This document shows, piece after piece, positions 41,212-62,531 of a stretch of 64,000 nt of DNA (its first letter is position 1; each line of letters starts with the position of its first letter). The stretch is from an uncultured Ignavibacteria bacterium (GTDB lineage Bacteria; Zixibacteria; MSB-5A5; CAIYYT01), in NCBI GenBank assembly GCA_964552775.1, contig CAZKIH010000001.1:195287-259286 (forward strand), in the 5' to 3' direction. The notes under the pieces are model-generated. The model was given only the letters and a program-made list of their open reading frames with translations. It did no database searches and had not been told where the DNA came from. The position numbers and the translations under genes were made by a program.

Positions 41212-41886
41212 ATGGCAGAACCTTTGGTGCAGGTGCGCGGAGTCTCGAAGTCGTATTATCGCGATTCACTGGAAATACCGGTATTGCGCAACATTAGTTT
41301 TGACATCCCCGCTGGGGAGTTTCTCGCTTTGATGGGCCCATCGGGCTCCGGCAAGACGACATTACTCAATTTGATTTCAGGAATTGACCAGCCGAGTGGC
41401 GGTGATCTCGTTGTTGCCGGTGAAAACATTGCGCGGCTTAGTGAAGGTCAGTTGGCGAAGTGGCGCTCTCAGCACATCGGCCTGGTCTTCCAGTTCTACA
41501 ACTTGCTTCCGGTACTAACGGCCTACGAAAATGTCGAGCTGCCGCTGTTGCTTTATAAGCTGTCGAAGTCCGACCGCAGGAAACGAGTGGAGACGGCTCT
41601 GACGATTGTGGGCCTTGGCGATCGCATGGATCATTTTCCGCGCCAGCTTTCCGGCGGGCAGGAACAACGAGTGGCGATTGCGCGCGCAATTGTCACGGAT
41701 CCAACCCTGCTCCTGGCAGACGAACCGACCGGCGATCTGGATAAACACTCCGCGGAAGAGATCATGACTCTGCTCACGCGCCTTAACAAGGAGTTCAACA
41801 AGACAATTATCATGGTAACCCACGATCCGCGCGCCGCCGAGAAAGCGAAAGTGATTCGCAATCTCGACAAGGGCGAGTTGGCTTAG
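41212..41886 (+). CDS. ABC transporter ATP-binding protein (MacB/LolD-type)
   Basis: Walker [13 protein letters not shown], signature [14 protein letters not shown], Walker [13 protein letters not shown]. Confidence 0.9.
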
Positions 41887-41894
41887 GTGCGACG

Positions 41895-43049: not shown

Positions 43050-43057
43050 TGAGGTAA

Positions 43058-45818: not shown

Positions 45819-47465
45819 TCAAAAACGCCGGCCGATCTCGGCGCGAAAAGTGTATCCGTCTGTGTCGTCGCCTGAATTTCGCTGATACAAGAGATCTGCA
45901 TACCAGTTTCGAATGGCCTCGATGCGCAGCACTCCCTCCCACCACCGATTGCGGCGAGAATCATTGCTCAGGACCAAGTTATATCGATACAATCCATTAG
46001 CAACTTCAGCCGATAACTTGTCCCCGAATCGTTGCGTTACCCGGACATTGTAGTTGTAGCCATCGTTGGTCGGTCCATCGAACTTTGAGTAGCGAGCGCT
46101 GATCCGGGTCTGCGATGTTGGTATTCCTGACTTGCTTGCATAGAAAACCAGTGATATCGTCGGATCGGCTTCATCAGCGGCTTTGCGGTATCCAATCTGC
46201 GAATTCAAATCGAAGTGGAACGGCAGATTGAGATAGAGATCTGCCCTTGCGCCACGGCGTAATTGATCGTCAAACAGGCTGTCGGCCAGCGACTGTTGGA
46301 TGTACGTCCAGTAATTGCGACGCGTATCGTACGACGAACCGACTGTCACCTGCTTGTTTATGCGCCAGCGGGCATTCAGGTAGACACTGGACAAATCGAA
46401 ACTTGCACTGGTTCTTTCCTTGCGCCACCCGCGATTGAAGTCGATTTCAAATTGATTGCTAAACCATAAGCCGCTGCCAACCTTCAGCGAACCTTGCAGA
46501 TTTATCAGTTCGCGGCTGATGCTGCTGCCGTGATATTCGCCGGCAAAAGCCGCGTACTGCTCAAAATGTGTATTGCCATGATTGATACTCTCGTAGCCAA
46601 CATAGCCGCCATACTTCTGAAGCGTCATGTCGTCGGAGGTATACTGCCATCTTGGCTTGATTCCGCCTGAGAGTCCAACGTGCCACCCTGATCCTACATG
46701 ACGATCAATGGCGGCGCCATCGACATAACCAACCCGGGTTAGATGACGCGGCAGAATCCTCCCCATTTGGAAGGTGGTCGCGTTGTCACTCCCGCCATAT
46801 GACAATGATAGTTCATAAATACGATTATCCCATTCGCTGTTCGAAGCTCCGGAAGAGTACTTTCTCGAGCGGTCATCATATTGTCCCCGGGTGCGGACAA
46901 CAAGCGTCATCGGCAGTGCCCATAGATTGCTGGCGCGCAGATTGAATCGCATAGTCGATTGGCTGAAATCAAGGCCACCACCCGACTTGTCGTGCTGTTT
47001 CATCCATTGCAGTGCCACTGAACCATTCAGTCGAGTTGATTTGTTGTCGCGTCTGGCTCGTGGTGTCTTTGCCGCGGGATTGGAACTGCCTGCATTCGCG
47101 GTTTCTGAATCAACGGTATCTTGAGGAGCAGGTTCCACTCGACCAATCCTACTAATCACGGTCAGTAGCTGTCCCGTTTTGAGCTCAGCGCTGCCGTTGA
47201 CGATTCTGCATGATGCTGAGTGGTCAGAAGCATACGCCACCTCCAAAGTCACGACAAGACTGTCACCGAGATACAATCCTAACCGGTCGCCTTGCATCAG
47301 ACCATCGGCCTTGCCACCTTCAAGGTAAACCCGATCGATGGAGCGGTACTTGATTCGATAACTCGCAGGGTGTTGCATCTCTTGCGAGAAGCATCGCGCA
47401 GAATTCAGTAATGTCCCGGTGACAAGCGCAATTAGTGCGAGGAGCAGAAGTGGCCGACGGATCAT
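45819..47465 (-). CDS. outer-membrane beta-barrel protein, candidate porin partner of the adjacent multiheme cytochromes
   Basis: Signal peptide MIRRPLLLLALIALVTGTLLNSARCFSQE and a long alternating-strand C-terminal region ending ...GYTFRAEIGRRF (terminal Phe, the OMP insertion signature). Its start codon abuts the stop of the 58-heme cytochrome gene. Confidence 0.6.
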   Translation of the reverse strand: MIRRPLLLLALIALVTGTLLNSARCFSQEMQHPASYRIKYRSIDRVYLEGGKADGLMQGDRLGLYLGDSLVVTLEVAYASDHSASCRIVNGSAELKTGQLLTVISRIGRVEPAPQDTVDSETANAGSSNPAAKTPRARRDNKSTRLNGSVALQWMKQHDKSGGGLDFSQSTMRFNLRASNLWALPMTLVVRTRGQYDDRSRKYSSGASNSEWDNRIYELSLSYGGSDNATTFQMGRILPRHLTRVGYVDGAAIDRHVGSGWHVGLSGGIKPRWQYTSDDMTLQKYGGYVGYESINHGNTHFEQYAAFAGEYHGSSISRELINLQGSLKVGSGLWFSNQFEIDFNRGWRKERTSASFDLSSVYLNARWRINKQVTVGSSYDTRRNYWTYIQQSLADSLFDDQLRRGARADLYLNLPFHFDLNSQIGYRKAADEADPTISLVFYASKSGIPTSQTRISARYSKFDGPTNDGYNYNVRVTQRFGDKLSAEVANGLYRYNLVLSNDSRRNRWWEGVLRIEAIRNWYADLLYQRNSGDDTDGYTFRAEIGRRF

Positions 47466-50400
47466 TTAATCGTTTCCATCCGGATGACAATTCAGGCATG
47501 CCGCACTCTGCCAAGAATAGCCATTCTCGTCCTGGTGTTTGTCATCCATCGTTGCCTGACTGTGCTCATGGCAGAAAATACACTCGAAAACAGCATAGTT
47601 GGACGTGTTGACATGGCAATCATTGCAATTATCCCATGCTTCTCGATGCTTGCCCGAGTAGATCGGAAAGTACTGCGTGTCATGATTCCAATTAGCCGGA
47701 GTCCATGCCGTTGTTGAGTGACAGGTCTGGCAATCGGTCGGGAAGTTCGCTGCAGCATGACTTGGCGCAGTAGTGCCACTGTAGGCATCTTGATGGCACG
47801 AGAAACACAACGTCGGTGTAGCGACGTATCCACCAGAATGGCAGGCGATGCACATCAATCCGACATGCGCGCCCGTTAACGGGAAGTTGGTCGTACTATG
47901 GTTAAATGATGCCGGCTCCCAGGCAGTGGTCGTGTGGCATTCAGTACATTGGTGCGAGAATCCATTCGTCACATGATTGGGATCGGTCACGGCTGCAAAA
48001 TCGCCTTGGTGGCAGCTATAACAGTCTGCTGGTGTATTGGTGTATCCCGCAGAGTGACAAGCGACACACTGCAGCCCGGTGTGACCGCCGGTGAGAGCGA
48101 AGCCCGTAGTGCTATGATTAAACGTCGACGGAGTCCAGACGGAAGTCGTGTGACAGGTCACGCAATTGTGATCAAAATTGTTAGCAACGTGATTCGGATC
48201 GGCAACGCCTGCAAAGTCTCCTTGGTGGCATGAATAACAAGCCGTTGACGTATTGGTATATCCTGACGAATGACAAGCGAGACATTGCAGTCCGGAATGT
48301 CCACCCGTAAGTGGGAATTGTGTCAGGCTGTGATCAAATGTCGCTGGCGTCCAAGCCGTGGTCCCGTGACAATTGGTGCAGAGTTGATCAAAATTGTTCG
48401 TCACATGATTAGGGTCAGACACCGCTGTGAAGTCGCCGGAGTGACATCCAAAACAAGTCTGGCTCGTGCCCGCATACGTTTGCGAATGACAAGAAATGCA
48501 CTGGAGCGAAGTATGTGCTCCCACTAACACAAATCCCGTGGTAGTGTGGTCCCAGTTGGTCGACTCCCAGTTCAAAGTGCCGTGACAAGTGGCACAGTTG
48601 TTGTCGAATCCGGCACTTGTATGATTCGGATTTGTGGCTTCAGTTACATCTGCTTGATGACATGATATGCAGGTGTTCGGGGTGTTTGTGTAGCCCGAAG
48701 TATGACAGCTTACGCAGGTCGCAGTTGAATGGGCTCCAGTTAACGTAAATCCAGTCTGGCTGTGATCAAAATTGCTCGGTTCCCAGGCTGTTGTGGAGTG
48801 ACAAGTGCTGCAGTCGTGGTCAAAGTTATTCTGCACATGATTGGGATTAGACGTTGAAGTGAAGTCACCGCTATGACAGTCAAAACAGAGGTTTGGCGTA
48901 TTCGTATAGCCGGTTGCATGGCATGAGATACAAGCCAGCGACGTGTGCGCCCCGGTTAACGCGAATCCTGTTGAGCTGTGGTTGAAATTGCTCGGTTCCC
49001 ATGCTGTTGTCGAGTGGCAAGTGCCGCAGTTATGGTCAAAGTTGTTCTGCACATGATTGGGGTCAGTCGTCCCCGCAAAGTCACCGCTATGGCAGTCGAA
49101 ACAGAGGTTCGGCGTATTCGTATAGCCGGTTGCATGACACGATATACACGCCAACGAAGTGTGGGCGCCGGTTAAATTGAACCCAGTTTGACTATGGTCA
49201 AAATCAGCAGGTTCCCACGCCGTTGTCGAGTGGCAAGTGCCGCAATTATGGTCAAAGTTGTTCTGCACATGATTGGGGTCAGTCGTCCCCGCAAAGTCAC
49301 CGCTATGACAGTCAAAACAAAGCGTCGGCGTATTCGTGTAACCCGTCGAATGGCATGAAATGCAGTTCGCCGATGTGTGCGCTCCAGTTAACACGAATCC
49401 GGTAGCAGAGTGGTCAAAAGATGACGGTTCCCACGCCGTTGTCGAGTGACAACTCGTACAGTCGTGATCAAAGTTGTTTTGCTCATGGTCAGGATCGGTC
49501 GTTCCCGCAAAGTCACCGCTATGACAGTCAAAACAAAGCGTCGGCGTATTCGTGTAACCCGTCGAATGGCATGAAATGCAGTTCGCCGATGTGTGCGCTC
49601 CAGTTAACACGAATCCGGTAGCAGAGTGGTCAAAAGATGACGGTTCCCACGCCGTTGTCGAGTGACAACTCGTACAGTCGTGATCAAAGTTGTTTTGCTC
49701 ATGGTCAGGATCAGTCGTTCCCGCAAAATCACCGCTATGACAGTCAAAACAAAGCGTCGGCGTATTGGTGTAACCCGTCGAATGGCATGAAATGCAGTTC
49801 GCCGATGTGTGGGCTCCAGTTAATACGAATCCGGTGGCAGAGTGGTCAAAAGATGACGGCTCCCACGCCATTGTCGAGTGACAACTCGTACAGTTGTGAT
49901 CAAAGTTGTTTGTCACGTGATTCGGATCGGTAGCTGATGCAAAGGCTTCGCTGTGACAGTCGAAGCATTGAGTGGCCGTCCCAACATAGCCCCCGCTATG
50001 GCAAGAGATACAAGCTAAGGTCTGATGTGCACCAGTCAGGGCAAACTGCGTCTGATTGTGATCGAACGTCGCCGGCGTCCAGGCAGAATTGGAGTGACAG
50101 GAAAGGCAGTTGTGATCAAAGTTCCCGCCTTCGTGGTCCGGATCATTCGCTTGAGCGAAGTCGCCTGAATGACAGGAAAAGCACTGTGGTGAGGTGTTCG
50201 CGTATCCACCCGAGTGACACGACTGGCAATCAAGTCCGACGTGTCCGCCTTCGAGGGGAAACCCCGTGAGTGCATGATCGTAACCGCGCGGATCAACTGG
50301 CAGCCATCCTGCGGTCGTATGACAGCCGGCACAATCATGGCCCAGTCCATTCGTTACATGGTTCGGATCAGTTGCGGCGGCAAATGCCATTTGATGGCAT

Positions 50401-51743
50401 GAATAACAGTCGTTGGCTGTATTAGCATATCCAGCACTGTGGCACGATTGACATTCCAGCTCCAAATGTGCTCCATTGATAGCAAATCCAGTCTGATCGT
50501 GATCAAATTCCGCCGGCTCCCAGGCGGTTGTGGTATGGCATTGCTGGCAGTCATGACTGAAATTCGCGGCCTCGTGGTCGGGGCTATCGGTAGCGGCAAA
50601 TCCGCTACTGTGGCACGAAAAGCAGTCTGAAGCAGTGTTGGTGTACCCTTCGCCGTGGCAATTCTGACATGCTAAAGCCGTGTGCGCGCCGGTCAGGGCG
50701 AAACTCGTCGCACTGTGATCGAAGTCCGCTGGCTCCCACGCGTTCATATTGTGGCAAGTCGTGCAGTCATGATCAAAATTGCCGGCCGTGTGGTCCGGCT
50801 CGTCTGCGTCGGCAAAGGCGGAGCTATGACAACTGAAGCAGTCAGTAGCTGTGTTCGTGTAGGAACTGCTGTGGCAATCCTGGCACTCAACCTTGGTGTG
50901 CGCACCTTCAAGCGCAAAACTAGTCACATTATGATCAAAGGTCGCCGGTGTCCAGGCCGTCATCGTATGACAAGTTGAGCAGTCCTGTGAGAAGTTTGCA
51001 GCTTCGTGGTCTGGATCTGGTGCTTCAAGGTAATCGGCGTTGTGGCAAGAATAACAGTCAGTCGGCGTTCCGGCAAATTGGGTAGCGTGACAAGAGGCGC
51101 AGTCAAGGCCCTGATGTCCACCTTCAAGGATCGGAGTAGGTGGATGGTCGAATTTCGCCCCTTCCCACGTGACCGCCGACGAGCGATGACACTGTACGCA
51201 ATCGCTGTCGAATCCCGCCAATACATGATTGGGATCAGTGGTTGTGTTGAAGTCGCTTTCGTGACAAAACTGACAATCAGCAGGAGTGCCGGCATATTGT
51301 TCGCTCAGTTGTCCCTTATGACATGACTGGCAATCCACAATCGCGTGAGTACCTGCCAGCGGAAAACCGCGTGAAGCGTGAACTTCAAAAACTTCCTGTT
51401 CGTTCTGCCACCCGCGAGTTGTATGGCAATTCTGACAGGTTGAACCTAACTGACCATTGTGTTGATCGGCATGGCAATCGGCGCAATTATCAGGGGTTTT
51501 CGCAAACGTAAGGTCATTGTGACAAGCGATACACTTAATCTGTTTATGTTTACCGGATAAAGGAAATCCTGTTTCGTCGTGGCGAAACTTGGTTTCTGTC
51601 GGAATCTCTTTCCAGTTCCCGGTCGAGTGGCAGGTCGCACAATCGAACTTGATGTCGCCGTGGGGATTATCACCCTGGGCGATGGCAAGAATTGTGAGGC
51701 CGGCTGCGAAAGCAGTTGTCAGGCAGACTCTTACAAGAGTCAT
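47466..51743 (-). CDS. giant multiheme c-type cytochrome (about 58 CxxCH motifs; tandem c7-like triheme domains)
   Basis: Signal peptide; 1425 aa; about 58 CxxCH counted by eye. The repeating unit is ~72 aa with 3 CxxCH and conserved His (..FDH..TGAH..C.SCHS.GY.NT...CF.CHSGDFAG.TDP(N/D)H..NNFDH.C..CHST.AW.P), resembling polymerised cytochrome c7 (PpcA-like) domains. Confidence 0.9.
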   Translation of the reverse strand: MTLVRVCLTTAFAAGLTILAIAQGDNPHGDIKFDCATCHSTGNWKEIPTETKFRHDETGFPLSGKHKQIKCIACHNDLTFAKTPDNCADCHADQHNGQLGSTCQNCHTTRGWQNEQEVFEVHASRGFPLAGTHAIVDCQSCHKGQLSEQYAGTPADCQFCHESDFNTTTDPNHVLAGFDSDCVQCHRSSAVTWEGAKFDHPPTPILEGGHQGLDCASCHATQFAGTPTDCYSCHNADYLEAPDPDHEAANFSQDCSTCHTMTAWTPATFDHNVTSFALEGAHTKVECQDCHSSSYTNTATDCFSCHSSAFADADEPDHTAGNFDHDCTTCHNMNAWEPADFDHSATSFALTGAHTALACQNCHGEGYTNTASDCFSCHSSGFAATDSPDHEAANFSHDCQQCHTTTAWEPAEFDHDQTGFAINGAHLELECQSCHSAGYANTANDCYSCHQMAFAAATDPNHVTNGLGHDCAGCHTTAGWLPVDPRGYDHALTGFPLEGGHVGLDCQSCHSGGYANTSPQCFSCHSGDFAQANDPDHEGGNFDHNCLSCHSNSAWTPATFDHNQTQFALTGAHQTLACISCHSGGYVGTATQCFDCHSEAFASATDPNHVTNNFDHNCTSCHSTMAWEPSSFDHSATGFVLTGAHTSANCISCHSTGYTNTPTLCFDCHSGDFAGTTDPDHEQNNFDHDCTSCHSTTAWEPSSFDHSATGFVLTGAHTSANCISCHSTGYTNTPTLCFDCHSGDFAGTTDPDHEQNNFDHDCTSCHSTTAWEPSSFDHSATGFVLTGAHTSANCISCHSTGYTNTPTLCFDCHSGDFAGTTDPNHVQNNFDHNCGTCHSTTAWEPADFDHSQTGFNLTGAHTSLACISCHATGYTNTPNLCFDCHSGDFAGTTDPNHVQNNFDHNCGTCHSTTAWEPSNFNHSSTGFALTGAHTSLACISCHATGYTNTPNLCFDCHSGDFTSTSNPNHVQNNFDHDCSTCHSTTAWEPSNFDHSQTGFTLTGAHSTATCVSCHTSGYTNTPNTCISCHQADVTEATNPNHTSAGFDNNCATCHGTLNWESTNWDHTTTGFVLVGAHTSLQCISCHSQTYAGTSQTCFGCHSGDFTAVSDPNHVTNNFDQLCTNCHGTTAWTPATFDHSLTQFPLTGGHSGLQCLACHSSGYTNTSTACYSCHQGDFAGVADPNHVANNFDHNCVTCHTTSVWTPSTFNHSTTGFALTGGHTGLQCVACHSAGYTNTPADCYSCHQGDFAAVTDPNHVTNGFSHQCTECHTTTAWEPASFNHSTTNFPLTGAHVGLMCIACHSGGYVATPTLCFSCHQDAYSGTTAPSHAAANFPTDCQTCHSTTAWTPANWNHDTQYFPIYSGKHREAWDNCNDCHVNTSNYAVFECIFCHEHSQATMDDKHQDENGYSWQSAACLNCHPDGND
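49190..49840. repeat. three near-identical tandem 216-bp repeats inside the giant cytochrome gene (more diverged copies span roughly 48100..51000)
   Basis: Plus-strand shadow ORFs at 49223, 49421 and 49637 give nearly identical translations with a 216-nt offset. The minus-strand protein repeats TAWEPSSFDHSATGFVLTGAHTSANCISCHSTGYTNTPTLCFDCHSGDFAGTTDPDHEQNNFDHDCTSCHST three times identically. Confidence 0.75.
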
Positions 51744-51760: not shown

Positions 51761-53422
51761 TTAGAGTTTGCCGGTCTTTGAATCGTGGCAGTCTTTACAT
51801 TCAGTACCTAATGGCTTGTATCGGACTAAAACAGTCGATTCTTGAATGATATTGCCATGACATTCACTACAAGGCACCTTTGAGTGCGCTCCATCGAGAC
51901 GATACCGCGAGTCACGGTTATGGTCAAACTTCGAGGCCTTCCAATTGTCAGTTTGGTGACAACGGTCGCAGGCAGTCTGTCCGTCAATGACAAACTGCCC
52001 TCGATGAATATCTTTATGACATTCGTTGCAGTTTCTTGGCAGTAGCTCGAAAGTCAGAAGTGATACGTTAGTTTTATCATTTTTGTTCCCATGACAGTCA
52101 AGGCATTCGACACTTGCGTGCTTTCCAGTCAGTGGGAATCTGGTTGAATCGTGTGCAAAGAATGATTCTTTCCAACCCTCGACACCATGACAGCTCTCGC
52201 AGCCGCCACTGTTGATCAACTTGTCTGCCCTTCCACTATGCGGATCCTTGTGGCAGATTTTACAGGCAGTCTCTTGGTACGCAAATCTGTATTGGCGCTG
52301 TGACCTGCCAGACGGAGAGGTTACGTGACAGCCATCGCAGGGTACCGCAAGGTGTGCTCCTCGCAGTGGATAGTCACAGCTATCGTGCTGCTCAACCGTG
52401 AAGATTCCAGGACGAAATCCATCCACATTGTGGCAGCGTTCGCATTTCGCACCACCGGAGCTTCCAACAAAAGCGCCCTGGTGATAATCAGAGTGGCAAT
52501 CGCCGCAACTGGAGAACGCCAGCAACTTGCGGGGGCCCTCCTGCTTGTGACACTTTTCGCACTGCAGCGGTATATGCAGTCCCAAGAGCGGGAAGCGAGT
52601 CTTGCTGTGATCGAAGCTGTTGTTGTTAACTGCTCGCCATCCTCCTGTGTTGTGACACCCCGAGCAGTTCTGCCCGAGGCGATTGGCATGCGGGTCTTTG
52701 TGACACGCGCTGCACTCAGCGTAGCTGAGGCCGGTAAACTTCTGGTATGAAGTGTCAGCTACTGCCGACTTGTCGACGAGAACAGGATGACACTTGGTGC
52801 ACTCAGCCTTTTGATGTTGACCAGTCAGAGGATACTTTGCCTTTTGATGGTCGAACGAAACTGCCGGCTTCCACGCTGTGTTGGAATGGCAAGATTCACA
52901 CTTGTTGGAAACCTGACCACGATGTTCGTCAAAATGGCAGCTACTGCACTTAGTCGACAATCCCAGAAGTGTCCGGTTTGGATCTTTGCGCGTATCTCCC
53001 TCCTTCAGGTCCGGCACAACATTCTTAGCCGTATGACACTGCCGGCACTGCAGTGGCTTGTGCGCTCCACTAAGATCGTATCCAGTTAGCGAATGGTCGA
53101 AGGCTGCTTCACCGTCTTTCCAATATACCAAAGCGAAATCGCGACCATGGTGCTCGACATGACACTCTTCGCACACCTTGTATTGATTGCTTCCGTGAAG
53201 CCCGTCGAGTTCATTTAGTTGTTTCTGGATCAATGTGTGGCAGACCAGGCAATTGGGGCCAATCTGCTTTCGATCGGAACCATGACATGAACGGCAATTG
53301 TCGAGACCCTCCAAGTGGCTGTGTGCCTTCGAAAGGTCTCCCGGGGACAATTGTGCAAAGGCCGAGGCTGATATCAAGGCAGCGACGGCTGCGACAAATC
53401 GCCAATAATTGCTCGGTCTCAT
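51761..53422 (-). CDS. multiheme c-type cytochrome (about 20 CxxCH motifs)
   Basis: Signal peptide MRPSNYWRFVAAVAALISASAFAQ. 20 CxxCH counted by eye (CRSCHG, CLVCHT, CEECHV ... CKDCHD) and little else but heme-binding spacing. Confidence 0.85.
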   Translation of the reverse strand: MRPSNYWRFVAAVAALISASAFAQLSPGDLSKAHSHLEGLDNCRSCHGSDRKQIGPNCLVCHTLIQKQLNELDGLHGSNQYKVCEECHVEHHGRDFALVYWKDGEAAFDHSLTGYDLSGAHKPLQCRQCHTAKNVVPDLKEGDTRKDPNRTLLGLSTKCSSCHFDEHRGQVSNKCESCHSNTAWKPAVSFDHQKAKYPLTGQHQKAECTKCHPVLVDKSAVADTSYQKFTGLSYAECSACHKDPHANRLGQNCSGCHNTGGWRAVNNNSFDHSKTRFPLLGLHIPLQCEKCHKQEGPRKLLAFSSCGDCHSDYHQGAFVGSSGGAKCERCHNVDGFRPGIFTVEQHDSCDYPLRGAHLAVPCDGCHVTSPSGRSQRQYRFAYQETACKICHKDPHSGRADKLINSGGCESCHGVEGWKESFFAHDSTRFPLTGKHASVECLDCHGNKNDKTNVSLLTFELLPRNCNECHKDIHRGQFVIDGQTACDRCHQTDNWKASKFDHNRDSRYRLDGAHSKVPCSECHGNIIQESTVLVRYKPLGTECKDCHDSKTGKL

Positions 53423-53425
53423 GCT

Positions 53426-54289
53426 TTAAGACAAACCCGCGAATCCAGTCCATATCGCAATTCCGATATGAACACCCATTATCAGGTACATAATAATGGC
53501 AAAGGGCTTGTGGATAACGTGCCAATAGTGAAATACTTCGCGCGTTCTATCCAGCATTTCGATACGTCGCGCAAGCGCGGCGCGCTCGAGGGCGAGCCGC
53601 GCCAGTTGCTTCAACCCGCGATCAACTGATGCAAATGATCGTTTCATATCCTTCATGAGGCGGCGAGTCAGCATCGGCCGGGCGAAGTCCGCCATGATGG
53701 CCCCAACCAGCAGCCTAAGAAATGAGCCCTCAGTCGAGATCATCCGTTTCGACAAAATCTCAAGCTGAGCCAATTGTTCCGGCGCCAGCCCATATTTGTC
53801 CCTCAAAATCTCCGTCGTCAATTGCACCTGTTTATCGACCTCAGTCATTGTCAGCTCATCGCCTTCCTGGTTGCGGGGTATTAGCTGATAGAGATAGCGC
53901 CCCAAGTATCCGCTTAGTGCCACCGCAATCATTGACCAGAATGCGACTGCTATCAGTCCCTGTACCTTAAATGACGAATGGAGAACAATGAAAAGCGGTC
54001 CGCACACACCAAGATAGATGTGTAGCTTCAACCAATTACGCAACGTGATTCTCTTGCCGAGCAGTTTGGTGCGTTTTCGAAGAGAATAGGACAACATCAA
54101 AACCATCATTGCCGAACCAATGTATCCGAATACAATTCCCAGACTCCCTGCCGGTCGCAGCGCACGATAGTCCTCGTGGTGCGGGCGCTCAATATAGGAT
54201 GTGCCGTAGTACTGGAGTCCAGCGACCAGGTAATAAACGATGATTATCAGGGTTAAAGTGTACAGAATGATCAAGAATTTTCTCATCAA
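53426..54289 (-). CDS. integral membrane protein with conserved His in TM helices; candidate b-heme/quinol-interacting anchor of the cytochrome operon
   Basis: 287 aa: 4 N-terminal TM helices, a ~110-aa cytoplasmic basic helical segment and a C-terminal TM. His residues in the TMs (HIYLGVCGPLFIVLHSS; HYWHVIHKPFAIIMYLIMGVHIGI). First gene of the operon; overlaps the next gene's start by 4 nt. Confidence 0.55.
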   Translation of the reverse strand: MMRKFLIILYTLTLIIIVYYLVAGLQYYGTSYIERPHHEDYRALRPAGSLGIVFGYIGSAMMVLMLSYSLRKRTKLLGKRITLRNWLKLHIYLGVCGPLFIVLHSSFKVQGLIAVAFWSMIAVALSGYLGRYLYQLIPRNQEGDELTMTEVDKQVQLTTEILRDKYGLAPEQLAQLEILSKRMISTEGSFLRLLVGAIMADFARPMLTRRLMKDMKRSFASVDRGLKQLARLALERAALARRIEMLDRTREVFHYWHVIHKPFAIIMYLIMGVHIGIAIWTGFAGLS

Positions 54290-54755: not shown

Positions 54756-55445
54756 TCAGTCTATCGCTCTGAGCCGGTAGCCGATTCCTGGCTCGGTCGC
54801 GATTAGGTCTTCTCGCAATGATTTGGAATTCAACTTCTTCCTCAACTGCCCGAAGTAAACCCGCAAGTATTGGCGTTGCTCGACAGCAGGAGGGCCCCAG
54901 ACTTCTCGCAGTATCTGTGTGTGCGTAACGACTCTGCCCACATGACGAGCAAGCAGCCGTAACAAATTATACTCAGTTGCAGTTAGATGCACGATGTTGT
55001 CGTCAACCGACACGATCCGTCCCACAAAGTCAATCTTGAGTGGCCCGGAGACAAAGACTGCCGATTCCTCCCCGGGGTGCGCGTGACGGAGAGCAACTCG
55101 TACTCGCGCGAGCAATTCAACAGCACTGAACGGCTTGGTCAGATAGTCATCAGCCCCCGCATCGAGAACCTTGACCTTGTCGGCGTCTGTATCCCTGACT
55201 GTGAGAACGATGATTGGCACTGTCGACCACTCGCGTATTCGACGGATGAAGTCATCGCCGCTCATGTCCGGCAGGCCGAGATCGAGAATGATAACTTCGG
55301 GCTTGAATGAAATTGCCTCGCGAAGACCATCGTTTGCCGTCGCGGCATCGCCGACTTGATAGCCATCGGTCTCCAGGCAGACTCTCAGAAGCTTGCGAAT
55401 TGCCGATTCATCATCAATGACCAAGACTCTCGTCGACTTGTTCAC
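54756..55445 (-). CDS. kdpE: two-component response regulator KdpE (OmpR family)
   Basis: REC domain (VLVIDDESAIRKLL...IILDLGLPDMSG) plus a winged-helix C-terminus. Overlaps kdpD by 4 nt. Confidence 0.85.
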   Translation of the reverse strand: MNKSTRVLVIDDESAIRKLLRVCLETDGYQVGDAATANDGLREAISFKPEVIILDLGLPDMSGDDFIRRIREWSTVPIIVLTVRDTDADKVKVLDAGADDYLTKPFSAVELLARVRVALRHAHPGEESAVFVSGPLKIDFVGRIVSVDDNIVHLTATEYNLLRLLARHVGRVVTHTQILREVWGPPAVEQRQYLRVYFGQLRKKLNSKSLREDLIATEPGIGYRLRAID

Positions 55446-58147
55446 AGGGACCCTTCCTCAGTCAGTGCTTTTGGCCGGCTGGCGATAGGTAATTCGATCT
55501 TAAATTCCGCGCCCCCTCCACTTCGATTGGCAACACGAACGCGTCCCTTGTGCAGCTCGACTATGCTCTTTGCCAATGAGAGCCCCAAGCCGATGCCCCC
55601 GGCAGGACTTCCGGGAAGTCGTCTGAACCTCTCGAAAACATGGCCGATTTCTGATGACGGAATTCCCGGCCCCTGGTCCAGGACTGAAATTGACAGATAG
55701 TCTGCCGATATTGCTGAGGAAATCTCGATACTGGAATTCGCAGGAGAGTACATCGCTGCATTTCTCAGGAGATTGGAAAGTGCATGCAGCAGCAACCCAA
55801 AGTCGCCGCTCAGCAGCAACGATTGTTCTCCGTAAATGACGTTTACCTGTCTCTCTCGCAGGAGACTTCGGCATTGCTCCACTGTCTCCCTGATCAATTC
55901 CTGGACATCAAACCACTCCAGATTAAGACGCAGAGTTCCGGATTGCAATCTCGACATATCGAGAAGGTTTTCTATCACATGATTGAGGCGGTCGGCCGAA
56001 ACAATAATTTCATCAGCGAGAGTCTCACGACCTGCGTCGCTGGACTTTAGCTTCGAGTCTCGTAACGCCGCAGCAAAACCGATTATTGCCGTCAGTGGCG
56101 TGCGCAATTCGTGTGAAATCGAGTTGAGTAGAGTCTGGTGAAGTTTTTCCGATTCCTCCAAGAGCGCCAAATCGCGATTTTGAATCTGCAATGCCTCGCG
56201 TTGCACCACAACAGCAGTCTGGTGGCAGAGCGCATAAAGCAAATCGTTTTGCTCACGCGAAAATTCCATGGGCTCGATTGGCCGGAACAAAAGGACTCCC
56301 AACTGCTCGTCTGCGACTCGCAGCGGGAGACACAGTGACCGCACCTGTGAGAGCGTTTCTGTCGACCATCCTGCCGGCTTGCCGTTTTCGTGCACCCAGG
56401 CTGCTACAGCCCAGTCGTTTGTATCCATGTCAATCGCACTCGTGCGAGCAATCCTCCCCAATTTTTGGGTTTTCTTGTCAGGTATCAGCAGACAAGAGCG
56501 GGCTTGAAACAACCGCTGAACTCGGCGATCAACTTCCTTTTCAAGTTGGTCCATTCCCTCAAGCTCTACCAAGGCGCGGACGAAGTCAAATAGCACCTGC
56601 GTTCGCAGCTCGCGCTGGCGCAGTAATCTCTCTTGCTTGATACTGCGCGCAGTCAGGATACCGGTGATTGTGGCTACCACAAAGTACGCCGCGAACATCA
56701 TGAAGTCTTCCGGTGCTGAAATGGAAAACGTAAACCTCGGTGGAATGAAGAAAAAATTCCAGACTATGGCACTGAGTGTTGCTGCAGTAAGCATCGCCGC
56801 AAACGAGCTCCGAAAAGCCAACAACATGATCGCCAAAAGATAGACAAATCCGACTGCGCGATAGCCGATCAGCGGCGCAAGCAACCAATTCAGTACCGAA
56901 ATTCCGGCTACCATTGCCAGAGCAGTGAGAACCGAAACTCTATCCACTTTCGGTGCCTGGATGATTGGCTTTCGCAGCGAATCACCGATCTCCATGTGGG
57001 GACGAATGACATGGATATCAATGTCCAGCCGCAGACGCACGAGTCGATCAAGAATCGTCCCGCCCCCGAGCAAGTCTCGCCAGAAGCGACGGTCTGGTCG
57101 GCCAACAATAATCTGTGTGATGTCGCGCTCCCGTGCAATTCGGGCAATGGCTGCAACAACGTCGGAATCGGCAGTCGTTACCACTTCTGCTCCGAGCTCC
57201 TGCGCCAAACGAAGATTCTCACGCAAGCACTCTTCGTCAACGGCCGAGAGAGGTGTTGCAGTATCCACATTGAGGGCGATCCAGGGCACGCGCATGGCAC
57301 CGGCATGGCGGCGCGTCGCTCTGATCAGGTCTTCGGAGGAGGGGCTGTGACTGACTGCCACCAATAGTCTCTCGGCTGTATTCCAACGCCCGGAAATGAG
57401 CAAACTCTGCCTGAGATCCTGCAATTCATGTTCTACCTGTTCAGCGGTCGCGCGTAATGACAGCTCGCGCAGGGCAGTGAGCGATTCCTCCTTAAAAAAA
57501 TTCTCGGCGGCCGCTTGCTTCCGATCCCCCAGGTAGACTTTGCCCTCGTGCAGACGCTTCAACAGTTCGGTTGGCGAAATATCAATCAGGGAAATCTCAT
57601 CGGCCATCCGAATTATGGAGTCCGGCACGGTTTCACGCACGGTCACGCCGGTGATACGTCTCACGACATCGTTTAGGCTCTCAAGATGCTGCACGTTAAG
57701 GGTCGAGTAAACGTTGATGCCTTGGTCGAGAAGTTCCTGAACATCGTGATAGCGTTTGGGATGTCTCGACCCCGGAGCATTTGAATGTGCGAGCTCGTCA
57801 ATAAGCACGAGAGCCGGTTTTCGCGCGATGATCGCGTCAAGGTCAAGTTCCTCAAGGTGAGTCCCTTTATACTCGATTACTCGCCGTGGGATGACCGTGA
57901 GCCCTTCTAACAGCGCCTGTGTCTCGGCTCGGCCATGAGTCTCTACGATTCCGACAACAATATCGACACCCCCGCCAAGCAACTCCTGAGCGGTCTTCAG
58001 CATGGCATACGTCTTGCCGACTCCGGCGGACATGCCAAAGAAGAGGCGCAGCTTTCCTGAGCGCGCCTTGGCTTCGTCACTCTTCAGCGCCTGTAAGAGT
58101 CGCTGGGGATCAGGTCGATCGGAGTTCGTCATTCTGGTTAGATTCAA
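55442..58147 (-). CDS. kdpD: sensor histidine kinase KdpD
   Basis: 901 aa: N-terminal KdpD domain with P-loop GMSAGVGKTYAML, a Usp-like domain, 4 TM helices, GAF, HisKA (SHELRTPLTAI) and HATPase. Confidence 0.9.
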   Translation of the reverse strand: MNLTRMTNSDRPDPQRLLQALKSDEAKARSGKLRLFFGMSAGVGKTYAMLKTAQELLGGGVDIVVGIVETHGRAETQALLEGLTVIPRRVIEYKGTHLEELDLDAIIARKPALVLIDELAHSNAPGSRHPKRYHDVQELLDQGINVYSTLNVQHLESLNDVVRRITGVTVRETVPDSIIRMADEISLIDISPTELLKRLHEGKVYLGDRKQAAAENFFKEESLTALRELSLRATAEQVEHELQDLRQSLLISGRWNTAERLLVAVSHSPSSEDLIRATRRHAGAMRVPWIALNVDTATPLSAVDEECLRENLRLAQELGAEVVTTADSDVVAAIARIARERDITQIIVGRPDRRFWRDLLGGGTILDRLVRLRLDIDIHVIRPHMEIGDSLRKPIIQAPKVDRVSVLTALAMVAGISVLNWLLAPLIGYRAVGFVYLLAIMLLAFRSSFAAMLTAATLSAIVWNFFFIPPRFTFSISAPEDFMMFAAYFVVATITGILTARSIKQERLLRQRELRTQVLFDFVRALVELEGMDQLEKEVDRRVQRLFQARSCLLIPDKKTQKLGRIARTSAIDMDTNDWAVAAWVHENGKPAGWSTETLSQVRSLCLPLRVADEQLGVLLFRPIEPMEFSREQNDLLYALCHQTAVVVQREALQIQNRDLALLEESEKLHQTLLNSISHELRTPLTAIIGFAAALRDSKLKSSDAGRETLADEIIVSADRLNHVIENLLDMSRLQSGTLRLNLEWFDVQELIRETVEQCRSLLRERQVNVIYGEQSLLLSGDFGLLLHALSNLLRNAAMYSPANSSIEISSAISADYLSISVLDQGPGIPSSEIGHVFERFRRLPGSPAGGIGLGLSLAKSIVELHKGRVRVANRSGGGAEFKIELPIASRPKALTEEGSL

Positions 58148-58707
58148 AATAACGAATCTAGGGCAATATTCAACCTCAATACGTTCACCCGCGGTTGCCC
58201 AATAAACCCGAGACTGAACGGCTCGACATTACTTTCGACCAATCGGCGTAACGGAACCAGTTGATCTTCACTTAGCCCACGCGCTTTAGCGACTCGTTCT
58301 ATCTGGTAGAAGGCTGCTTCCGGCGAAATGTGCGGATCAAGCCCGCTACCCGAAGCAAGCAGCAGCTCATCGGGTGGCTGTTTGCCGCCATTCGCCCCAG
58401 CCAATGACGCCTGTCGCGTCGTGATCTGCTCCAGCAATGCCTTGCTTGTCGGGCCGAGATTTGTGCCGCTCGATGGTTGCGCATTATAGCCGATCCCGGA
58501 GGGGCGCGGCCAAAAATAACTTGAATCGGTGAATTCCTGGGCGATGAGTTCTGATCCAATCAATCTTCCATTGGAATGGATAAGGCTACCGTTAGCCTGA
58601 TGCGGAAATAGCACCTGGGCAGCACCAAGCATTATCAATGGATAGATCACTCCGGTCACAATTGTCATTGCGCCGATGAGCTTTGCTGCTATCAAAAAAG
58701 TCTTCAT
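58144..58707 (-). CDS. kdpC: potassium-transporting ATPase subunit C
   Basis: 187 aa with an N-terminal TM and the KdpC family motif GVIYPLIMLGAAQVLFPHQANGSL. Confidence 0.9.
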   Translation of the reverse strand: MKTFLIAAKLIGAMTIVTGVIYPLIMLGAAQVLFPHQANGSLIHSNGRLIGSELIAQEFTDSSYFWPRPSGIGYNAQPSSGTNLGPTSKALLEQITTRQASLAGANGGKQPPDELLLASGSGLDPHISPEAAFYQIERVAKARGLSEDQLVPLRRLVESNVEPFSLGFIGQPRVNVLRLNIALDSLF

Positions 58708-58730
58708 TGAAGTTCCAGTCTCCCGACGAG

Positions 58731-60830
58731 TTACGAGATTAATCCCAATTGGGTGACAATAATGTCGATTATCTTAATTCCGACAAAAGGCACAATCAAA
58801 CCACCCAAGCCGTAAATCAACAGATTCCGACGCAAAATGGCTTCCGCGCCCAAAGGCCGATACTTGATCCCTCTCAAGGCCAACGGAATTAGAGCAACAA
58901 TTATGAGGGCATTGAATATCACTGCACTGAGAATCGCGCTCTGCGGAGACACGAGTTGCATGACATTGAGCTTTGCCAATGGACCTACCGAGCCTGACGT
59001 GGCATAAAGCACGCTGAACATCGCTGGCACGATGGCAAAGTACTTTGCTACATCATTGGCCACACTGAATGTCGTCAACGCGCCCCGTGTCATGAGAAGC
59101 TGCTTGCCGGTTTCCACCACCTCAATCAGTTTGGTCGGATTGGAGTCGAGATCAACCATGTTCCCAGCTTCGCGTGCGGCTTGCGTTCCCGTATTCATCG
59201 CCACGCCAACATCAGCCTGTGCCAAAGCGGGAGCATCGTTGGTGCCATCGCCGGTCATGGCAACCAAGTGCCCATTGGCCTGTTCCTCGCGAATGCGATT
59301 AAGTTTGGCCTCGGGATTGGCTTGAGCCATAAAGTCGTCTACTCCGGCCTCGGCCGCTATTGAGGCGGCTGTCAGCGGATTGTCTCCGGTTACCATAATC
59401 GTCCGAATGCCCATCGAACGCAGTTGCGAGAATCTCTCTTTGATTCCGCCCTTAACGACGTCCTTGAGATGCACTACGCCAAGAACAAAGTGTTCCTCGG
59501 AAACCACCAACGGCGTGCCGCCAGACTTTGAAATGCGGTTCACAATGGGATCGACATCCGCCGGCCAGGTGCCGCCGCTGTTCTCAATATGTTTCCTGAT
59601 TGCATCGCCGGAACCCTTGCGCAGAGTGCGTACCGGTTCGCCGCTCTCCAGGACATCGACGCCGCTCATCCGCGTTTGTGCGCTGAAGGGAACAAATCGA
59701 GCCAGGTGTGGCGGCAGTGTCTCGGCGCGCAATCCAAATCTATCTTTCGCCAACACCACAATTGATCTGCCCTCCGGAGTCTCATCACTCAACGAAGCCA
59801 ACTGCGCGGTCTCCGCAAGCGTCTGCGCCGGTACTCCCGGTACCGGTATGAACTCGGTCGCCATCCGATTGCCGAACGTGATCGTTCCTGTCTTATCCAG
59901 TAACAAGACATCAACGTCTCCTGCGGCTTCCACCGCGCGGCCGCTCGTGGCAATAACATTCTTTCGGATCATGCGATCCATACCGCTGATACCAATCGCG
60001 CTCAATAATCCGCCGATTGTTGTGGGAATGAGACACACTAACAGCGAGATGAGAATCGGCAGAGTTACGACTGCGGACAGGTCCTGCGCCGCTTCGTTGC
60101 CGCTGTAGTCAGCAAAAAGTTTGAGAGTGGCAACGGCAAGCAGAAATATGATCGTCAGGGCCAAGAGCACGAGACTCAGTGCGATTTCGTTCGGCGTCTT
60201 CTGGCGCTTGGCTCCTTCGACAAGGTTGATCATTCGGTCAAGAAACGAGTGCCCCTGTTCTGCCGTGATCGCGATGACAATACGGTCGCTGATCACTCGA
60301 GTTCCTCCCGTAACCGCGCTGCGGTCTCCGCCGCTTTCACGTATTACCGGCGCCGACTCTCCCGTAATCGCCGACTCGTCAACGGAGGCAATGCCTTCGG
60401 TGACTTCACCGTCACCGGGAATAATATCGTTAGCCTCACAGACAACAAAGTCTCCGGGTCGCAAATCCGCCGCGTTGACTTTGACTTCCTGGTTCTTGGG
60501 AAGTAACTTCCGGGCTATTGTCGAAGTCCGCATGCGTTTCAGGCTCTCTGCCTGCGCCTTGCCCCGGCCTTCAGCAACTGCTTCGGCGAAGTTGGCGAAC
60601 AACACTGTAAAGAACAGCCACAGGCAAATCTGCAGGTCGAATCCCGAAAAGTCGCCGCGAATGATATTCGTAAAAAAGGCTATCGCTGTGAGTATTGTCC
60701 CGATCAAGACCACGAACATCACGGGGTTTTTGATTTGCGCTTTGGGATTCAGTTTGCGAAAAGCATCGAAAGACGCTTGTCGCAGCAACGCTCCATCAAA
60801 TAGCGTAGTTGATTTCTTGGTATTCGTCAA
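58731..60830 (-). CDS. kdpB: potassium-transporting ATPase subunit B (P-type ATPase)
   Basis: 699 aa with DKTGTIT phosphorylation motif, TGDN and [10 protein letters not shown]. Confidence 0.95.
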
Positions 60831-60842
60831 TTTCCACCCTGC

Positions 60843-62531
60843 CTAAAAAGTAGTGCCTGTCAGCATCAGTAGATGTTCAAGTATTGGTCCGAGCGCCAGA
60901 ACTGGGAAAAATGTCAATGCGCCGACGATCAGAATTGTCGCGGTCAAAATCAGACCGAATGTCATGCCCTCGGTCGAAAAACTCCCCGCCGTCATTGGCG
61001 TCGACTTCTTGCGAACCAGGCTTCCCGAAATCAACAGCACAGGCAAAATTACGCCGAATCGCGCCAGCAACATACAGAGTCCGAGTGCGATATTATAGAA
61101 GGGAGTATTGGCATTCAGCCCTGCGAACGCGCTTCCGTTATTGCCGCTTGCGGAGGTAGTCGCATACAGTATTTCACTCAGTCCGTGAGGGCCGTGATTG
61201 GCCAGACTGCTCAGTCCAGCCGTCGTTGAACAGGCAATTGCGGACGTGATCAATATGAGCGCACACGGCAGAATGATCGCAATCGTTGTCCAGCGCATCT
61301 CCAGTGCTTCAATCTTCTTGCCAAAGTACTCGGGTGTTCTTCCGACCATTAGTCCGGAAAGGAATACTGTCAGCAGCACGAACAAGATCATTCCATACAT
61401 ACCGGCACCAACGCCGCCAAAAATGATCTCACCAAGCATGATGTTGAACATTGCTATACCACCGGCTATCGGAGACATACTCGAGTGCATTGCATTCACC
61501 GAGCCGTTGGACGCAACAGTTGTGAAGTTGGACCAGATGATGCTATTCACAACTCCAAATCGCGTCTCTTTTCCCTCGAGGTTAGAAACTCCGAGCGCGC
61601 TGTTGTTCGAAAATTCGGCGTAGGCTGAGATACCGATAAACGCGATCAGCATAATCATCATAACACCGTAGAGCACCCAGGCGTGTTTGCGCGAGCCGAC
61701 CATCAATCCGAATGTGTATACGAGCGCGGCAGGCAACATCAAGATTGCCAGCACCTCGAACCAGTTCGAAAGTGGTGTCGGGTTTTCATACGGGTGCGCG
61801 CTGTTGGTATTGAAGAACCCTCCGCCATTGGTGCCAAGCTGTTTGATCGCTATCTGCGAAGCCGCCGGGCCCATCGGCAGTATCTGCTCTTTCCCTTCTA
61901 GTGTCGTCGCAGATTGGTAGGCATCGACATTCTGCACTACGCCTTGGCCGACCAGTACCAGCGTCCAGACAATGGAGAGTGGCAATAGGATATGTATGGT
62001 CGATCGCGTCATATCCGTCCAGAAATTACCCAAAGTCCCGGAGGTCTTTCTCGAAATACCGCGCGCCAGCGCCGCCATTACCGCTATACCCGTCGCAGCA
62101 CTGACAAAATTCTGTACAGTGAGTCCAACCATCTGCGTCAAATAACTTAGGGTTACCTCACCTGCATAGGATTGCCAGTTGGTATTTGTCATGAAGCTGA
62201 CAGCCGTATTTAACGCCAGATGCCACGACGGCGCCGGCAGGTTCTGTGGATTGAGCGGCAACAACTGCTGCAGAATTTGGAGAAGAAACACTACGGCAAA
62301 CCCGCCCAGATTGAAGAGCAACAACGCCGAGGCGTATTGCTTCCAATCCATCTCGGCATCAGCATCGATACCGCACATTCTATAGATCAACCGCTCGACA
62401 CTCTTAAACGGGCGGAGGATGTTTGAGCCCTGACCAGTCAGCATGTTGTAACAGAACCGCCCCAAAACGGGCGTCAGAACGATCAAGGCAACAATCAATG
62501 CGGCAATTTGCAGAAAGTCGTTAGCAATCAT
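60843..62531 (-). CDS. kdpA: potassium-transporting ATPase subunit A
   Basis: 562 aa, KdpA channel-like subunit with multiple TM helices and selectivity-filter-like GG motifs. Confidence 0.95.
   Translation of the reverse strand: MIANDFLQIAALIVALIVLTPVLGRFCYNMLTGQGSNILRPFKSVERLIYRMCGIDADAEMDWKQYASALLLFNLGGFAVVFLLQILQQLLPLNPQNLPAPSWHLALNTAVSFMTNTNWQSYAGEVTLSYLTQMVGLTVQNFVSAATGIAVMAALARGISRKTSGTLGNFWTDMTRSTIHILLPLSIVWTLVLVGQGVVQNVDAYQSATTLEGKEQILPMGPAASQIAIKQLGTNGGGFFNTNSAHPYENPTPLSNWFEVLAILMLPAALVYTFGLMVGSRKHAWVLYGVMMIMLIAFIGISAYAEFSNNSALGVSNLEGKETRFGVVNSIIWSNFTTVASNGSVNAMHSSMSPIAGGIAMFNIMLGEIIFGGVGAGMYGMILFVLLTVFLSGLMVGRTPEYFGKKIEALEMRWTTIAIILPCALILITSAIACSTTAGLSSLANHGPHGLSEILYATTSASGNNGSAFAGLNANTPFYNIALGLCMLLARFGVILPVLLISGSLVRKKSTPMTAGSFSTEGMTFGLILTATILIVGALTFFPVLALGPILEHLLMLTGTTF

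Follow-up and report, generated by a model that had tools for sequence, protein, structure and literature searches.

Among the porin-cytochrome clusters (PCC) that have been described, PCC3 and PCC4 have in common a "conserved inner membrane protein" of ~300 amino acids with five transmembrane (TM) helices, an SGXXG motif on TM4 and two WX3HX13H motifs, one in TM3 and one in TM5 (He, Barco, Emerson & Roden 2017, Front Microbiol 8:1584; PMC5566968). The investigators proposed that this protein binds two haems b in the manner of a ferric reductase domain and is a quinone-active cytochrome b (PMC5566968), and in later papers, up to 2025, its role is still a prediction. Its gene stands beside those for a periplasmic cytochrome of ~21 haems, for a second cytochrome of very large size and for a protein of the outer membrane, and since 2017 the inner-membrane component in conduits of the PCC3 type has been assumed to be linked to the quinone pool. 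Here, we studied a 64,000-nucleotide (nt) stretch of contig CAZKIH010000001.1 (assembly GCA_964552775.1, positions 195,287 to 259,286; hereafter, the window) from an uncultured bacterium labelled Ignavibacteria and placed in the Zixibacteria, which encodes an inner-membrane protein of this kind (IMP) at the head of a five-gene operon. Comparative evidence points to a dedicated NAD(P)H Fe-S flavoprotein, the product of the fifth gene (FLAV), and we propose that the system in the window is a PCC3-like conduit of FCB-group and Acidobacteriota lineages in which this flavoprotein would be the obligatory partner of IMP.

The open reading frame at 53426-54289 on the minus strand is a real gene and is widely conserved. 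As listed it opens with TTG and encodes 287 amino acids. Orthologs in the protein database and a separate gene prediction on an identical contig both have 286, which makes the ATG at 54286-54284 the probable start. The gene is the first of five tightly packed minus-strand genes (Table 1), and the cytochrome encoded next to it has 20 CxxCH motifs, so that in its place in the operon and in the haem count of its neighbor it is as the initial annotation of this stretch had described it. The 4-nt overlap with the cytochrome gene given there was wrong: between the IMP stop codon TAA (53428-53426) and the start codon of the cytochrome gene, an ATG at 53422 in the same frame, there is a spacer of 3 nt, AGC.

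Held against the published recipe, IMP has the expected size (286-287 amino acids), five TM helices, SGXXG on TM4 and both WX3HX13H motifs, and the operon supplies a 20-haem cytochrome (the PCC3 median is 21), a 58-haem cytochrome and a 548-amino-acid protein with a signal peptide. The last is presumed to be an outer-membrane porin or barrel and has no Pfam or NCBIfam match. This likeness to PCC3 is one of published feature description, sequence homology having been shown only to short inner-membrane proteins of the type in Table S6 of He et al. 2017 (Bradyrhizobium, 235 amino acids, and others; tblastn 7e-4 to 2e-12). A tblastn search of plasmids with the 20-haem cytochrome found only Emticicia and no proteobacterial PCC3 cluster for comparison. 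Whereas PCC3 and PCC4 are mostly proteobacterial, the window type occurs in FCB-group phyla and Acidobacteriota; further, the PCC3 description comprises four genes in a different order, whereas here there is a fifth, invariable one, FLAV.

The invariability of FLAV emerges from scans in both directions. A genome scan with the IMP profile gave 80 loci, from Zixibacteria, Calditrichota (including Caldithrix abyssi), bins labelled Ignavibacteria, Eisenbacteria, KSB1, Latescibacterota and Neomarinimicrobiota, as well as from the acidobacteriotal classes Thermoanaerobaculia, Vicinamibacteria and Holophagae. The recurrent gene order is IMP, 20-haem cytochrome, large cytochrome (10-73 haems), outer-membrane protein and FLAV, and an ortholog of the 20-haem cytochrome follows IMP in most of the 80 loci. 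We counted as informative those loci that had the outer-membrane gene in full and a further 600 nt or more after it, and FLAV is present in 49 of the 49 loci so defined: directly after the outer-membrane gene in 48 (median gap ~20 nt) and between IMP and the outer-membrane gene in the 49th. Variants of the order keep the trio together, as in Neomarinimicrobiota (IMP, FLAV, 20-haem cytochrome) and in one locus from Thermoanaerobaculia (IMP, 20-haem cytochrome, FLAV). For the reverse test, a metagenome scan was seeded with 12 flavoproteins and returned 80 loci (41-87% identity), 63 of them with an IMP homolog; the remaining 17 are short contigs with <9 kb upstream. Where at least 9 kb of upstream sequence was available, 20 of 20 loci held an IMP match, although the match in one of these (L103) is no more than an opposite-strand fragment of 51 amino acids. 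In 42 of the 63 loci IMP and FLAV are immediate neighbors on one strand (34 as IMP-FLAV, with gaps of -17 to +143 nt, and eight as FLAV-IMP), and such direct adjacency is found in most divergent lineages. Thus, by two-way co-occurrence and by adjacency, the IMP-FLAV pair is the conserved core around which the cytochromes and the outer-membrane protein shift.

Every locus with enough DNA has the same cytochrome and porin context, and the neighbors of IMP are redox proteins rather than an assortment of sensor or transport genes. In one metagenome locus (L126), a lipoprotein-like gene (5504-6043; ~179 amino acids, lipobox ...LTDGC) lies between IMP and FLAV, and seven other loci, which form with it a soil-type subgroup, have a similar IMP-FLAV gap of ~530 nt. 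An apparent fusion of IMP with the flavoprotein (P0246, 418 amino acids) was rejected as a collapsed chimera: it consists of IMP to about residue 232, a short cytochrome fragment and the C terminus of the flavoprotein, lacks TM5, and probably arose as an artefact when one such cluster was assembled or suffered a deletion. In the searchable literature on Caldithrix, Chocolate Pots, peat clusters for extracellular electron transfer (EET), Gallionellaceae and Sideroxydans we found no description of a link between FLAV and a conduit, an absence that is no proof. What is new is FLAV as the invariable fifth-gene partner; the architecture of IMP itself was already known.

FLAV consists, in order, of an N-terminal TM helix (residues 8-26), a K/R-rich stretch, a 2x[4Fe-4S] ferredoxin domain, an FAD domain resembling YpdA and thioredoxin reductase (TrxR), and an NAD(P)H domain; a TM helix followed by a K/R-rich stretch places the bulk of the protein in the cytoplasm. 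It matches Pfam Pyr_redox_3 (4e-45) and Fer4 and, in the PDB, entry 7a7b (YpdA/Bdr; 1e-28), and NCBIfam agrees. Its eight cluster ligands, in C63xxCxxCxxxCP and C94xxH97xxCxxxCP, are conserved in 48 orthologs, as are its GxGxxG, GGGDSA and SYR motifs, and the same orthologs have no redox-active CxxC. The presence of H97 in the second motif implies that one cluster has a His ligand. In this motif (CxxHxxCxxxCP, residues 94-104) the His replaces the usual second Cys, and it is kept in 47 of the 48 orthologs as well as in Emticicia. In other enzymes, [4Fe-4S] clusters with a His ligand are typically exposed at the surface and serve as entry or exit points. The closest functional parallels are enzymes of the GltD/NfnB/DsrL type and the FAD-[2Fe-2S] reductases of oxygenases, which follow the same logic of passing electrons from NAD(P)H to flavin to Fe-S and on, one at a time, to a protein. 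Unlike these enzymes, FLAV has an N-terminal membrane anchor and an FAD domain closest to YpdA/Bdr and the thioredoxin reductases, and it appears to be devoted to a membrane cytochrome b.

A tblastn search of plasmids found two kinds of IMP relatives, one a complete cluster and the other a set of shorter proteins. The complete cluster is on plasmid pEMTOL02 of Emticicia oligotrophica DSM 17448, in the order ccsA, IMP, FLAV, 23-haem cytochrome, 40-haem cytochrome and a 538-amino-acid protein. This is a cultured aerobic member of the Bacteroidota that has the whole system on a 100-kb plasmid (record 78197-89995, with the cluster itself at 81299-89995), preceded by the 1028-amino-acid ccsA; upstream of the cluster are a sigma-70 factor and a Rieske/cytochrome c cluster. 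The plasmid location hints at horizontal mobility, and the strain is a possible experimental model. The shorter relatives (228-252 amino acids, some of them named "iron reductase" by PGAP) come from Bradyrhizobium, Methylophaga, Methylocystis, Legionella (L. fallonii), Variovorax and Alteromonas. In five of these plasmids (all except that of Methylocystis, whose gene table has the reductase and the short IMP only) the gene is flanked by those for a 7-haem protein of the cytochrome c3 family and a reductase of 610-690 amino acids. In the three reductases whose sequences we looked at (those of Bradyrhizobium, Methylophaga and Legionella), a signal peptide and a periplasmic region rich in Met and His are followed by a single TM helix, by FAD_binding_6 and NAD_binding_1 domains and by a [2Fe-2S] ferredoxin domain, which is the architecture of oxygenase reductase components (GbcB, PaaE, BenC), a class that reduces partner proteins. 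The triad stands, uninterpreted, in Table S6 of He et al. under "MHC, IMP, other redox protein" (PMC5566968). Two unrelated NAD(P)H-flavin-Fe-S modules thus stand beside the same kind of membrane protein and a periplasmic multihaem cytochrome, and this is the strongest argument for a cytoplasmic NAD(P)H-dependent donor. The three-gene module of the short proteins may serve to reduce metal (Cu/Fe) in the periplasm with NAD(P)H as the driving reductant. Its neighbors in the plasmids of Methylophaga, Legionella and Variovorax, three of the six, are genes for copper resistance (multicopper oxidase, CopB, DUF411, P-type ATPase), and in Bradyrhizobium BTAi1 it lies between zwf/gnd and tal.

Hydropathy places the TM helices of IMP at residues 5-23, 48-66, 87-105, 111-131 and 253-281, four in the N-terminal part and one toward the C terminus as first described, and the helices of an AlphaFold2 (AF2) model built on 32 homologs (mean pLDDT 84, pTM 0.65) agree. 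The cytoplasmic segment between TM4 and TM5 had been put at ~110 amino acids and called helical and basic; it is 121 amino acids long (residues 132-252), forms an all-helical bundle in the model, and is only mildly basic (K+R 21, D+E 17). Helices were modelled at 148-166, 170-183, 190-202, 204-218 and 226-286, the last of which prolongs TM5 into a helix of 60 residues. The TM2-TM3 loop (residues 69-86, SLRKRTKLLGKRITLRNW) contains seven K+R and no D+E. Such a polybasic loop implies an N-in topology, which puts H90 and H260 near the cytoplasmic face of the membrane and H104 and H274 near the periplasmic face.

These four residues belong to the two motifs W86-x3-H90-x13-H104 on TM3 and W256-x3-H260-x13-H274 on TM5 (the exact motif residues are W86-LKL-H90, W256-HVI-H260 and, on TM4, S126-G127-Y-L-G130). 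Among 32 homologs of 46-83% identity, H90, H104, H254, H257, H260 and H274 are invariant, and so are W86, S126, G127, G130, R131 and W256. In relatives from Bacteroidota and Proteobacteria with 24-33% identity, H90, H104, W256, H260, H274, G127, G130 and R131 are still invariant, and H254 and H257 are not. Judged by these alignments, the invariance of the His residues is far beyond chance. The initial annotation had seen intramembrane His spaced like b-haem ligands, and the four that form the two H-x13-H pairs do hold from 83% down to 24% identity, in both of the aligned sets of homologs. IMP has no CxxCH, CxxxCH or CxxxxCH motif. Read from sequence, then, haem binding is highly probable, and with it the assignment of IMP as a di-haem b TM protein; that IMP is part of the cytochrome conduit seems to us every bit as probable. 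The earlier view of it as a b-haem inner-membrane module of such a conduit is very probably right, given the invariant His and the constant cytochrome and porin context. The periplasmic loop at residues 25-49, in which Y28, R35, Y41, R45, P46 and G48 are invariant among the 32 homologs, is a candidate contact for the 20-haem cytochrome. Three further His residues are not accounted for by two haems: H37 in the periplasmic loop, and H254 and H257 at the cytoplasmic end of TM5 (FHYWHVIHKPF). In the long subfamily these three vary little or not at all, whereas the short relatives from Proteobacteria lack them.

The family is large and, so far, without a name. A word-indexed search gave at least 626 relatives, all unnamed, and a full scan of 1.84 billion representatives with the family's hidden Markov model matched 3427 clusters (50% identity) at E<=1e-3, 470 of them at E<=1e-30. 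NCBIfam contains no family for IMP or for its short "iron reductase" relatives, and in Pfam and NCBIfam no model reached threshold for IMP, those of the CymA/NapC-NirT, ImcH and CbcL families included. Below threshold, Ferric_reduct (PF01794) scored 15.7 bits against a cutoff of 28, over residues 55-111 only, whereas DUF4405 (PF14358; 20.0 against 26.7 bits) and Ni_hydr_CYTB (PF01292; 16.7 against 30.1 bits) matched TM5 only. Among the 32 homologs such sub-threshold matches were found for Ferric_reduct in 23 (best E 9e-4), for DUF4405 in 20 (best 5e-6) and for Ni_hydr_CYTB in 17, and two close homologs (P0010 and P0011) have precomputed PF14358 matches. These signals, weak but consistent, are coherent in that all three are families of di-haem membrane cytochromes b. 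The original observation that IMP belongs to no named family therefore stands as far as databases at threshold are concerned, but the suggestion that it may be a new type does not, the architecture having been published by He et al. 2017.

Several described systems help to define what IMP would do. In the MsrQ/Fre pair of E. coli, a two-component system like NADPH oxidase (NOX), the flavin reductase is a polypeptide of its own; it supplies electrons to a haem protein in the membrane, which in turn reduces a partner in the periplasm (PMC5676040). IMP shares with the NOX/FRE proteins and with MsrQ two predicted bis-His haem b sites on TM3 and TM5 and a polybasic cytoplasmic TM2-TM3 loop, and the scheme proposed here shares with MsrQ/Fre a cytoplasmic NAD(P)H-flavin donor on a separate polypeptide and a periplasmic protein acceptor. 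The ferric-reductase domain has six TM helices and carries its H-x12-14-H pairs on the third and fifth of them, whereas IMP has five and the 121-amino-acid insert between TM4 and TM5; the His pairs and the helices that bear them match. The proposed donor and acceptor are different as well, an FNR-fold protein and O2 or MsrP in NOX and MsrQ, as against a TrxR/YpdA-like Fe-S flavoprotein and a multihaem cytochrome here. The PF01292 cytochromes b (of Ni-hydrogenase, formate dehydrogenase and cytochrome b561) and DUF4405 proteins are likewise membrane bis-His di-haem proteins, and IMP resembles their C-terminal helices weakly; the match is confined to one helix (TM5). PF01292 proteins exchange electrons with quinones, and to DUF4405 no function is assigned. 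CymA/NapC-NirT, ImcH, CbcL and CbcBA occupy the same position in their pathways as IMP. No sequence relationship to them was detected, and CymA, ImcH, CbcL and CbcBA carry c-type haems and take electrons from quinol, whereas IMP is without CxxCH and its context points to NAD(P)H.

We propose that IMP would act as a five-helix cytochrome b that serves a PCC3-like porin-cytochrome conduit as its electron wire across the membrane, with one haem held by H90 and H260 near the cytoplasmic face and a second by H104 and H274 near the periplasmic face. Electrons would pass from NAD(P)H to FAD, through the two [4Fe-4S] clusters of FLAV, one of them His-ligated, to the cytoplasmic-side haem b, and from the periplasmic-side haem b to the 20-haem cytochrome, the barrel with its 58-haem cytochrome and an extracellular acceptor. 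This would be the logic of a "split NADPH oxidase", as in MsrQ and Fre, with a multihaem cytochrome as acceptor. The TM4-TM5 insert, long in the subfamily paired with a TrxR-like flavoprotein and 30-50 amino acids shorter in the proteobacterial relatives paired with an FNR-like reductase, is a candidate docking surface for FLAV. Confidence in the parts of this scheme varies. That FLAV gives electrons directly to IMP, which presupposes contact between the two, we hold to be somewhat more probable than its opposite; outward flow we regard as somewhat likely; and for the whole chain from NAD(P)H through FLAV and IMP to the conduit the balance tips only slightly in favor. Electrons that leave the cytoplasm from NAD(P)H consume membrane potential, so the pathway would be a low-potential sink that regenerates NAD(P)+.

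A number of results count against this scheme. IMP has no significant match in Pfam, NCBIfam or the PDB: the family profile found nothing meaningful among PDB sequences (E 1.8 or worse), hhalign saw no similarity between the profile and E. coli MsrQ (probability 0.14), and Foldseek, run with the whole AF2 model against the PDB, returned long-helix artefacts only (F-BAR domains and ABC exporters; E >=0.38), a comparison probably dominated by the 60-residue helix of TM5 and the cytoplasmic segment. When electrons are exported from NAD(P)H, this step saves no energy for the cell, an unusual feature in a respiratory pathway. The sequence of IMP would be compatible with a quinone site, and the co-occurrence is compatible both with a direct partner and with an NDH-2-like NAD(P)H:quinone reductase dedicated to the supply of an IMP that oxidizes quinol. 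Moreover, the proteobacterial PCC3 clusters were described as four genes without a flavoprotein (PMC5566968), so this class of protein can apparently work without a flavoprotein gene nearby.

The reading that survives best beside ours is one in which IMP oxidizes menaquinol and passes the electrons to the 20-haem cytochrome, FLAV being a quinone reductase or an accessory. Known EET pathways do begin from quinol (CymA, ImcH, CbcL), and in the flavin-based EET of Listeria, Ndh2 charges a local quinone pool, which offers a model for the part of FLAV. Feeding from the quinone pool was also what the initial annotation had suggested, and a quinone-active cytochrome b is what He et al. 2017 (PMC5566968) proposed for this class of protein; this reading is favored by the weak likeness of TM5 to Ni_hydr_CYTB and DUF4405, among whose members are di-haem cytochromes b that react with quinones, and by the proteobacterial clusters that lack a flavoprotein. 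Against it, no quinone-site motif was identified in IMP, and a membrane-spanning haem pair would be unneeded if quinol were oxidized at the periplasmic face. NDH-2-type enzymes need no Fe-S, whereas in both of the unrelated partner flavoproteins the last carrier is a one-electron Fe-S center, as is typical where one protein passes electrons to another, and the direct adjacency of IMP and FLAV in 42 of the 63 reciprocal loci also counts against this reading. With FLAV in every informative locus and another NAD(P)H reductase beside the distant relatives, a quinol oxidase is not what the data support, and we regard it as unlikely, yet as a rival that is still alive.

The direct transfer from FLAV to IMP that we prefer could also run inward, from extracellular Fe(II), minerals or cathodes through IMP and FLAV to NAD(P)+, in which case the conduit would be a source of reductant. 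PCC3 was first proposed as a conduit for Fe(II) oxidation in iron oxidizers, and all cofactors of the chain are reversible in principle. However, transfer from Fe(II) to NAD(P)+ (about -320 mV) is uphill, the import of electrons opposes an inside-negative potential, and the operon has no energy-coupling component. The same potential favors export, which makes inward flow to NAD(P)+ improbable. The carrier lineages are known mainly as anaerobic heterotrophs, which also counts against import, and according to the literature PCC3 of S. lithotrophicus ES-1 is not induced by Fe(II).

Less probable again is that IMP and FLAV are helpers of cytochrome maturation, which would keep haem iron or the thiols of apocytochromes reduced while the 78 haems of the operon's two cytochromes (20 + 58 CxxCH) are attached, rather than an operating electron input. 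The exceptional CxxCH load of the operon would fit, and the Emticicia cluster does open with ccsA (a fused CcsBA-type protein of 1028 amino acids) directly before IMP. No ccs gene adjoins the window operon, however, IMP lacks a conserved Cys pair and FLAV lacks CxxC, and the minimal proteobacterial module has a 7-haem cytochrome as its fixed third partner, more in keeping with a role in redox transfer than with that of a client. One version of such a role, a thiol relay like DsbD/CcdA, is excluded because neither protein has a conserved Cys pair. Finally, a role for IMP outside redox chemistry, as structural anchor, sensor or transporter with conserved His that bind metal instead of haem, is hardly credible, for despite the lack of a family model at threshold and the three His (H37, H254, H257) conserved only in the long subfamily and left over from the haem sites, a paired H-x13-H on two helices, at matching depths and kept at 24-83% identity, is the signature of a bis-His di-haem protein, and the context consists exclusively of redox proteins.

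If NAD(P)H is the source of the electrons, then uncultured lineages of sediment and soil (Zixibacteria, Calditrichota, Acidobacteriota and others) could dump NAD(P)H electrons directly on extracellular acceptors. They could then reach low-potential acceptors beyond the range of menaquinol, and the conduit would be a redox-balancing sink rather than a proton-pumping respiration. The principle of transmembrane electron export known from NOX and MsrQ would be extended to mineral respiration, and IMP, FLAV and the 20-haem cytochrome would form a compact marker set for metagenome surveys. The broader proposition, that many FCB-group bacteria and Acidobacteriota have a quinone-independent EET that supplies electrons at the potential of NAD(P)H and bypasses the quinone pool, with FLAV docking on IMP, a 20-haem cytochrome that spans the periplasm and a mineral or other extracellular oxidant as acceptor, we consider evenly balanced. 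Emticicia oligotrophica DSM 17448, as a cultured carrier, makes experiments feasible.

Table 1. Genes of the conduit operon in the window and mapped parts of IMP
Feature	Position	Strand	Basis
IMP, five-TM putative di-haem b inner-membrane protein, 286-287 amino acids	53426-54289	-	Open reading frame, homologs, motifs, topology, AF2 model
TM3 of IMP with W86-x3-H90-x13-H104; H90 codon 54020-54022, H104 codon 53978-53980	53975-54031	-	Alignments
TM4 of IMP with S126-G127-x-x-G130, then R131	53897-53959	-	Alignments; SGXXG of He et al. 2017
Cytoplasmic helical insert of IMP between TM4 and TM5, 121 amino acids; proposed flavoprotein docking platform	53534-53896	-	Composition, AF2
TM5 of IMP with H254, H257 and W256-x3-H260-x13-H274; H260 codon 53510-53512, H274 codon 53468-53470	53447-53533	-	Alignments
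20-haem c-type cytochrome, periplasmic, 553 amino acids, signal peptide; proposed acceptor of IMP	51761-53422	-	20 CxxCH; Pfam Cytochrome_C7 and c3
58-haem c-type cytochrome, 1425 amino acids, signal peptide; presumed extracellular or porin-threaded	47466-51743	-	58 CxxCH; Pfam
Presumed outer-membrane beta-barrel, 548 amino acids, signal peptide, C-terminal ...GRRF	45819-47465	-	Conserved position between large cytochrome and FLAV
FLAV, membrane-anchored 2x[4Fe-4S] FAD/NAD(P)H flavoprotein; probable start ATG at 45795	44455-45807	-	Pfam, PDB, NCBIfam, ligand conservation, co-occurrence

A scan of the operon for promoters and terminators gave counts at the level of shuffled sequence and was uninformative. 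Directly upstream, on the same strand, is a complete kdp potassium-uptake locus (kdpA, kdpB, kdpC, kdpD and kdpE; 54756-62531), and the 466-nt intergenic region between it and the conduit operon is without a sigma-70-like promoter. At the other end, a MacAB-like efflux set (HlyD, an ABC ATPase and two FtsX permeases; 39996-44224, plus strand) converges on the end of the operon, and beyond it, at 37037-39679 on the minus strand, is the gene for a large secreted M14 carboxypeptidase with CarboxypepD_reg, CARDB, He_PIG and dockerin domains. Within the operon, the gene for the 58-haem cytochrome contains a tandem repeat (48777-49911) with a unit of 216 nt, that is, 72 amino acids and three haems, present in 5.3 copies of 87% identity, and three of the protein units are identical. 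Since orthologs of this cytochrome have anywhere from 10 to 73 CxxCH motifs, expansion and contraction of the repeat probably set the length of the wire.

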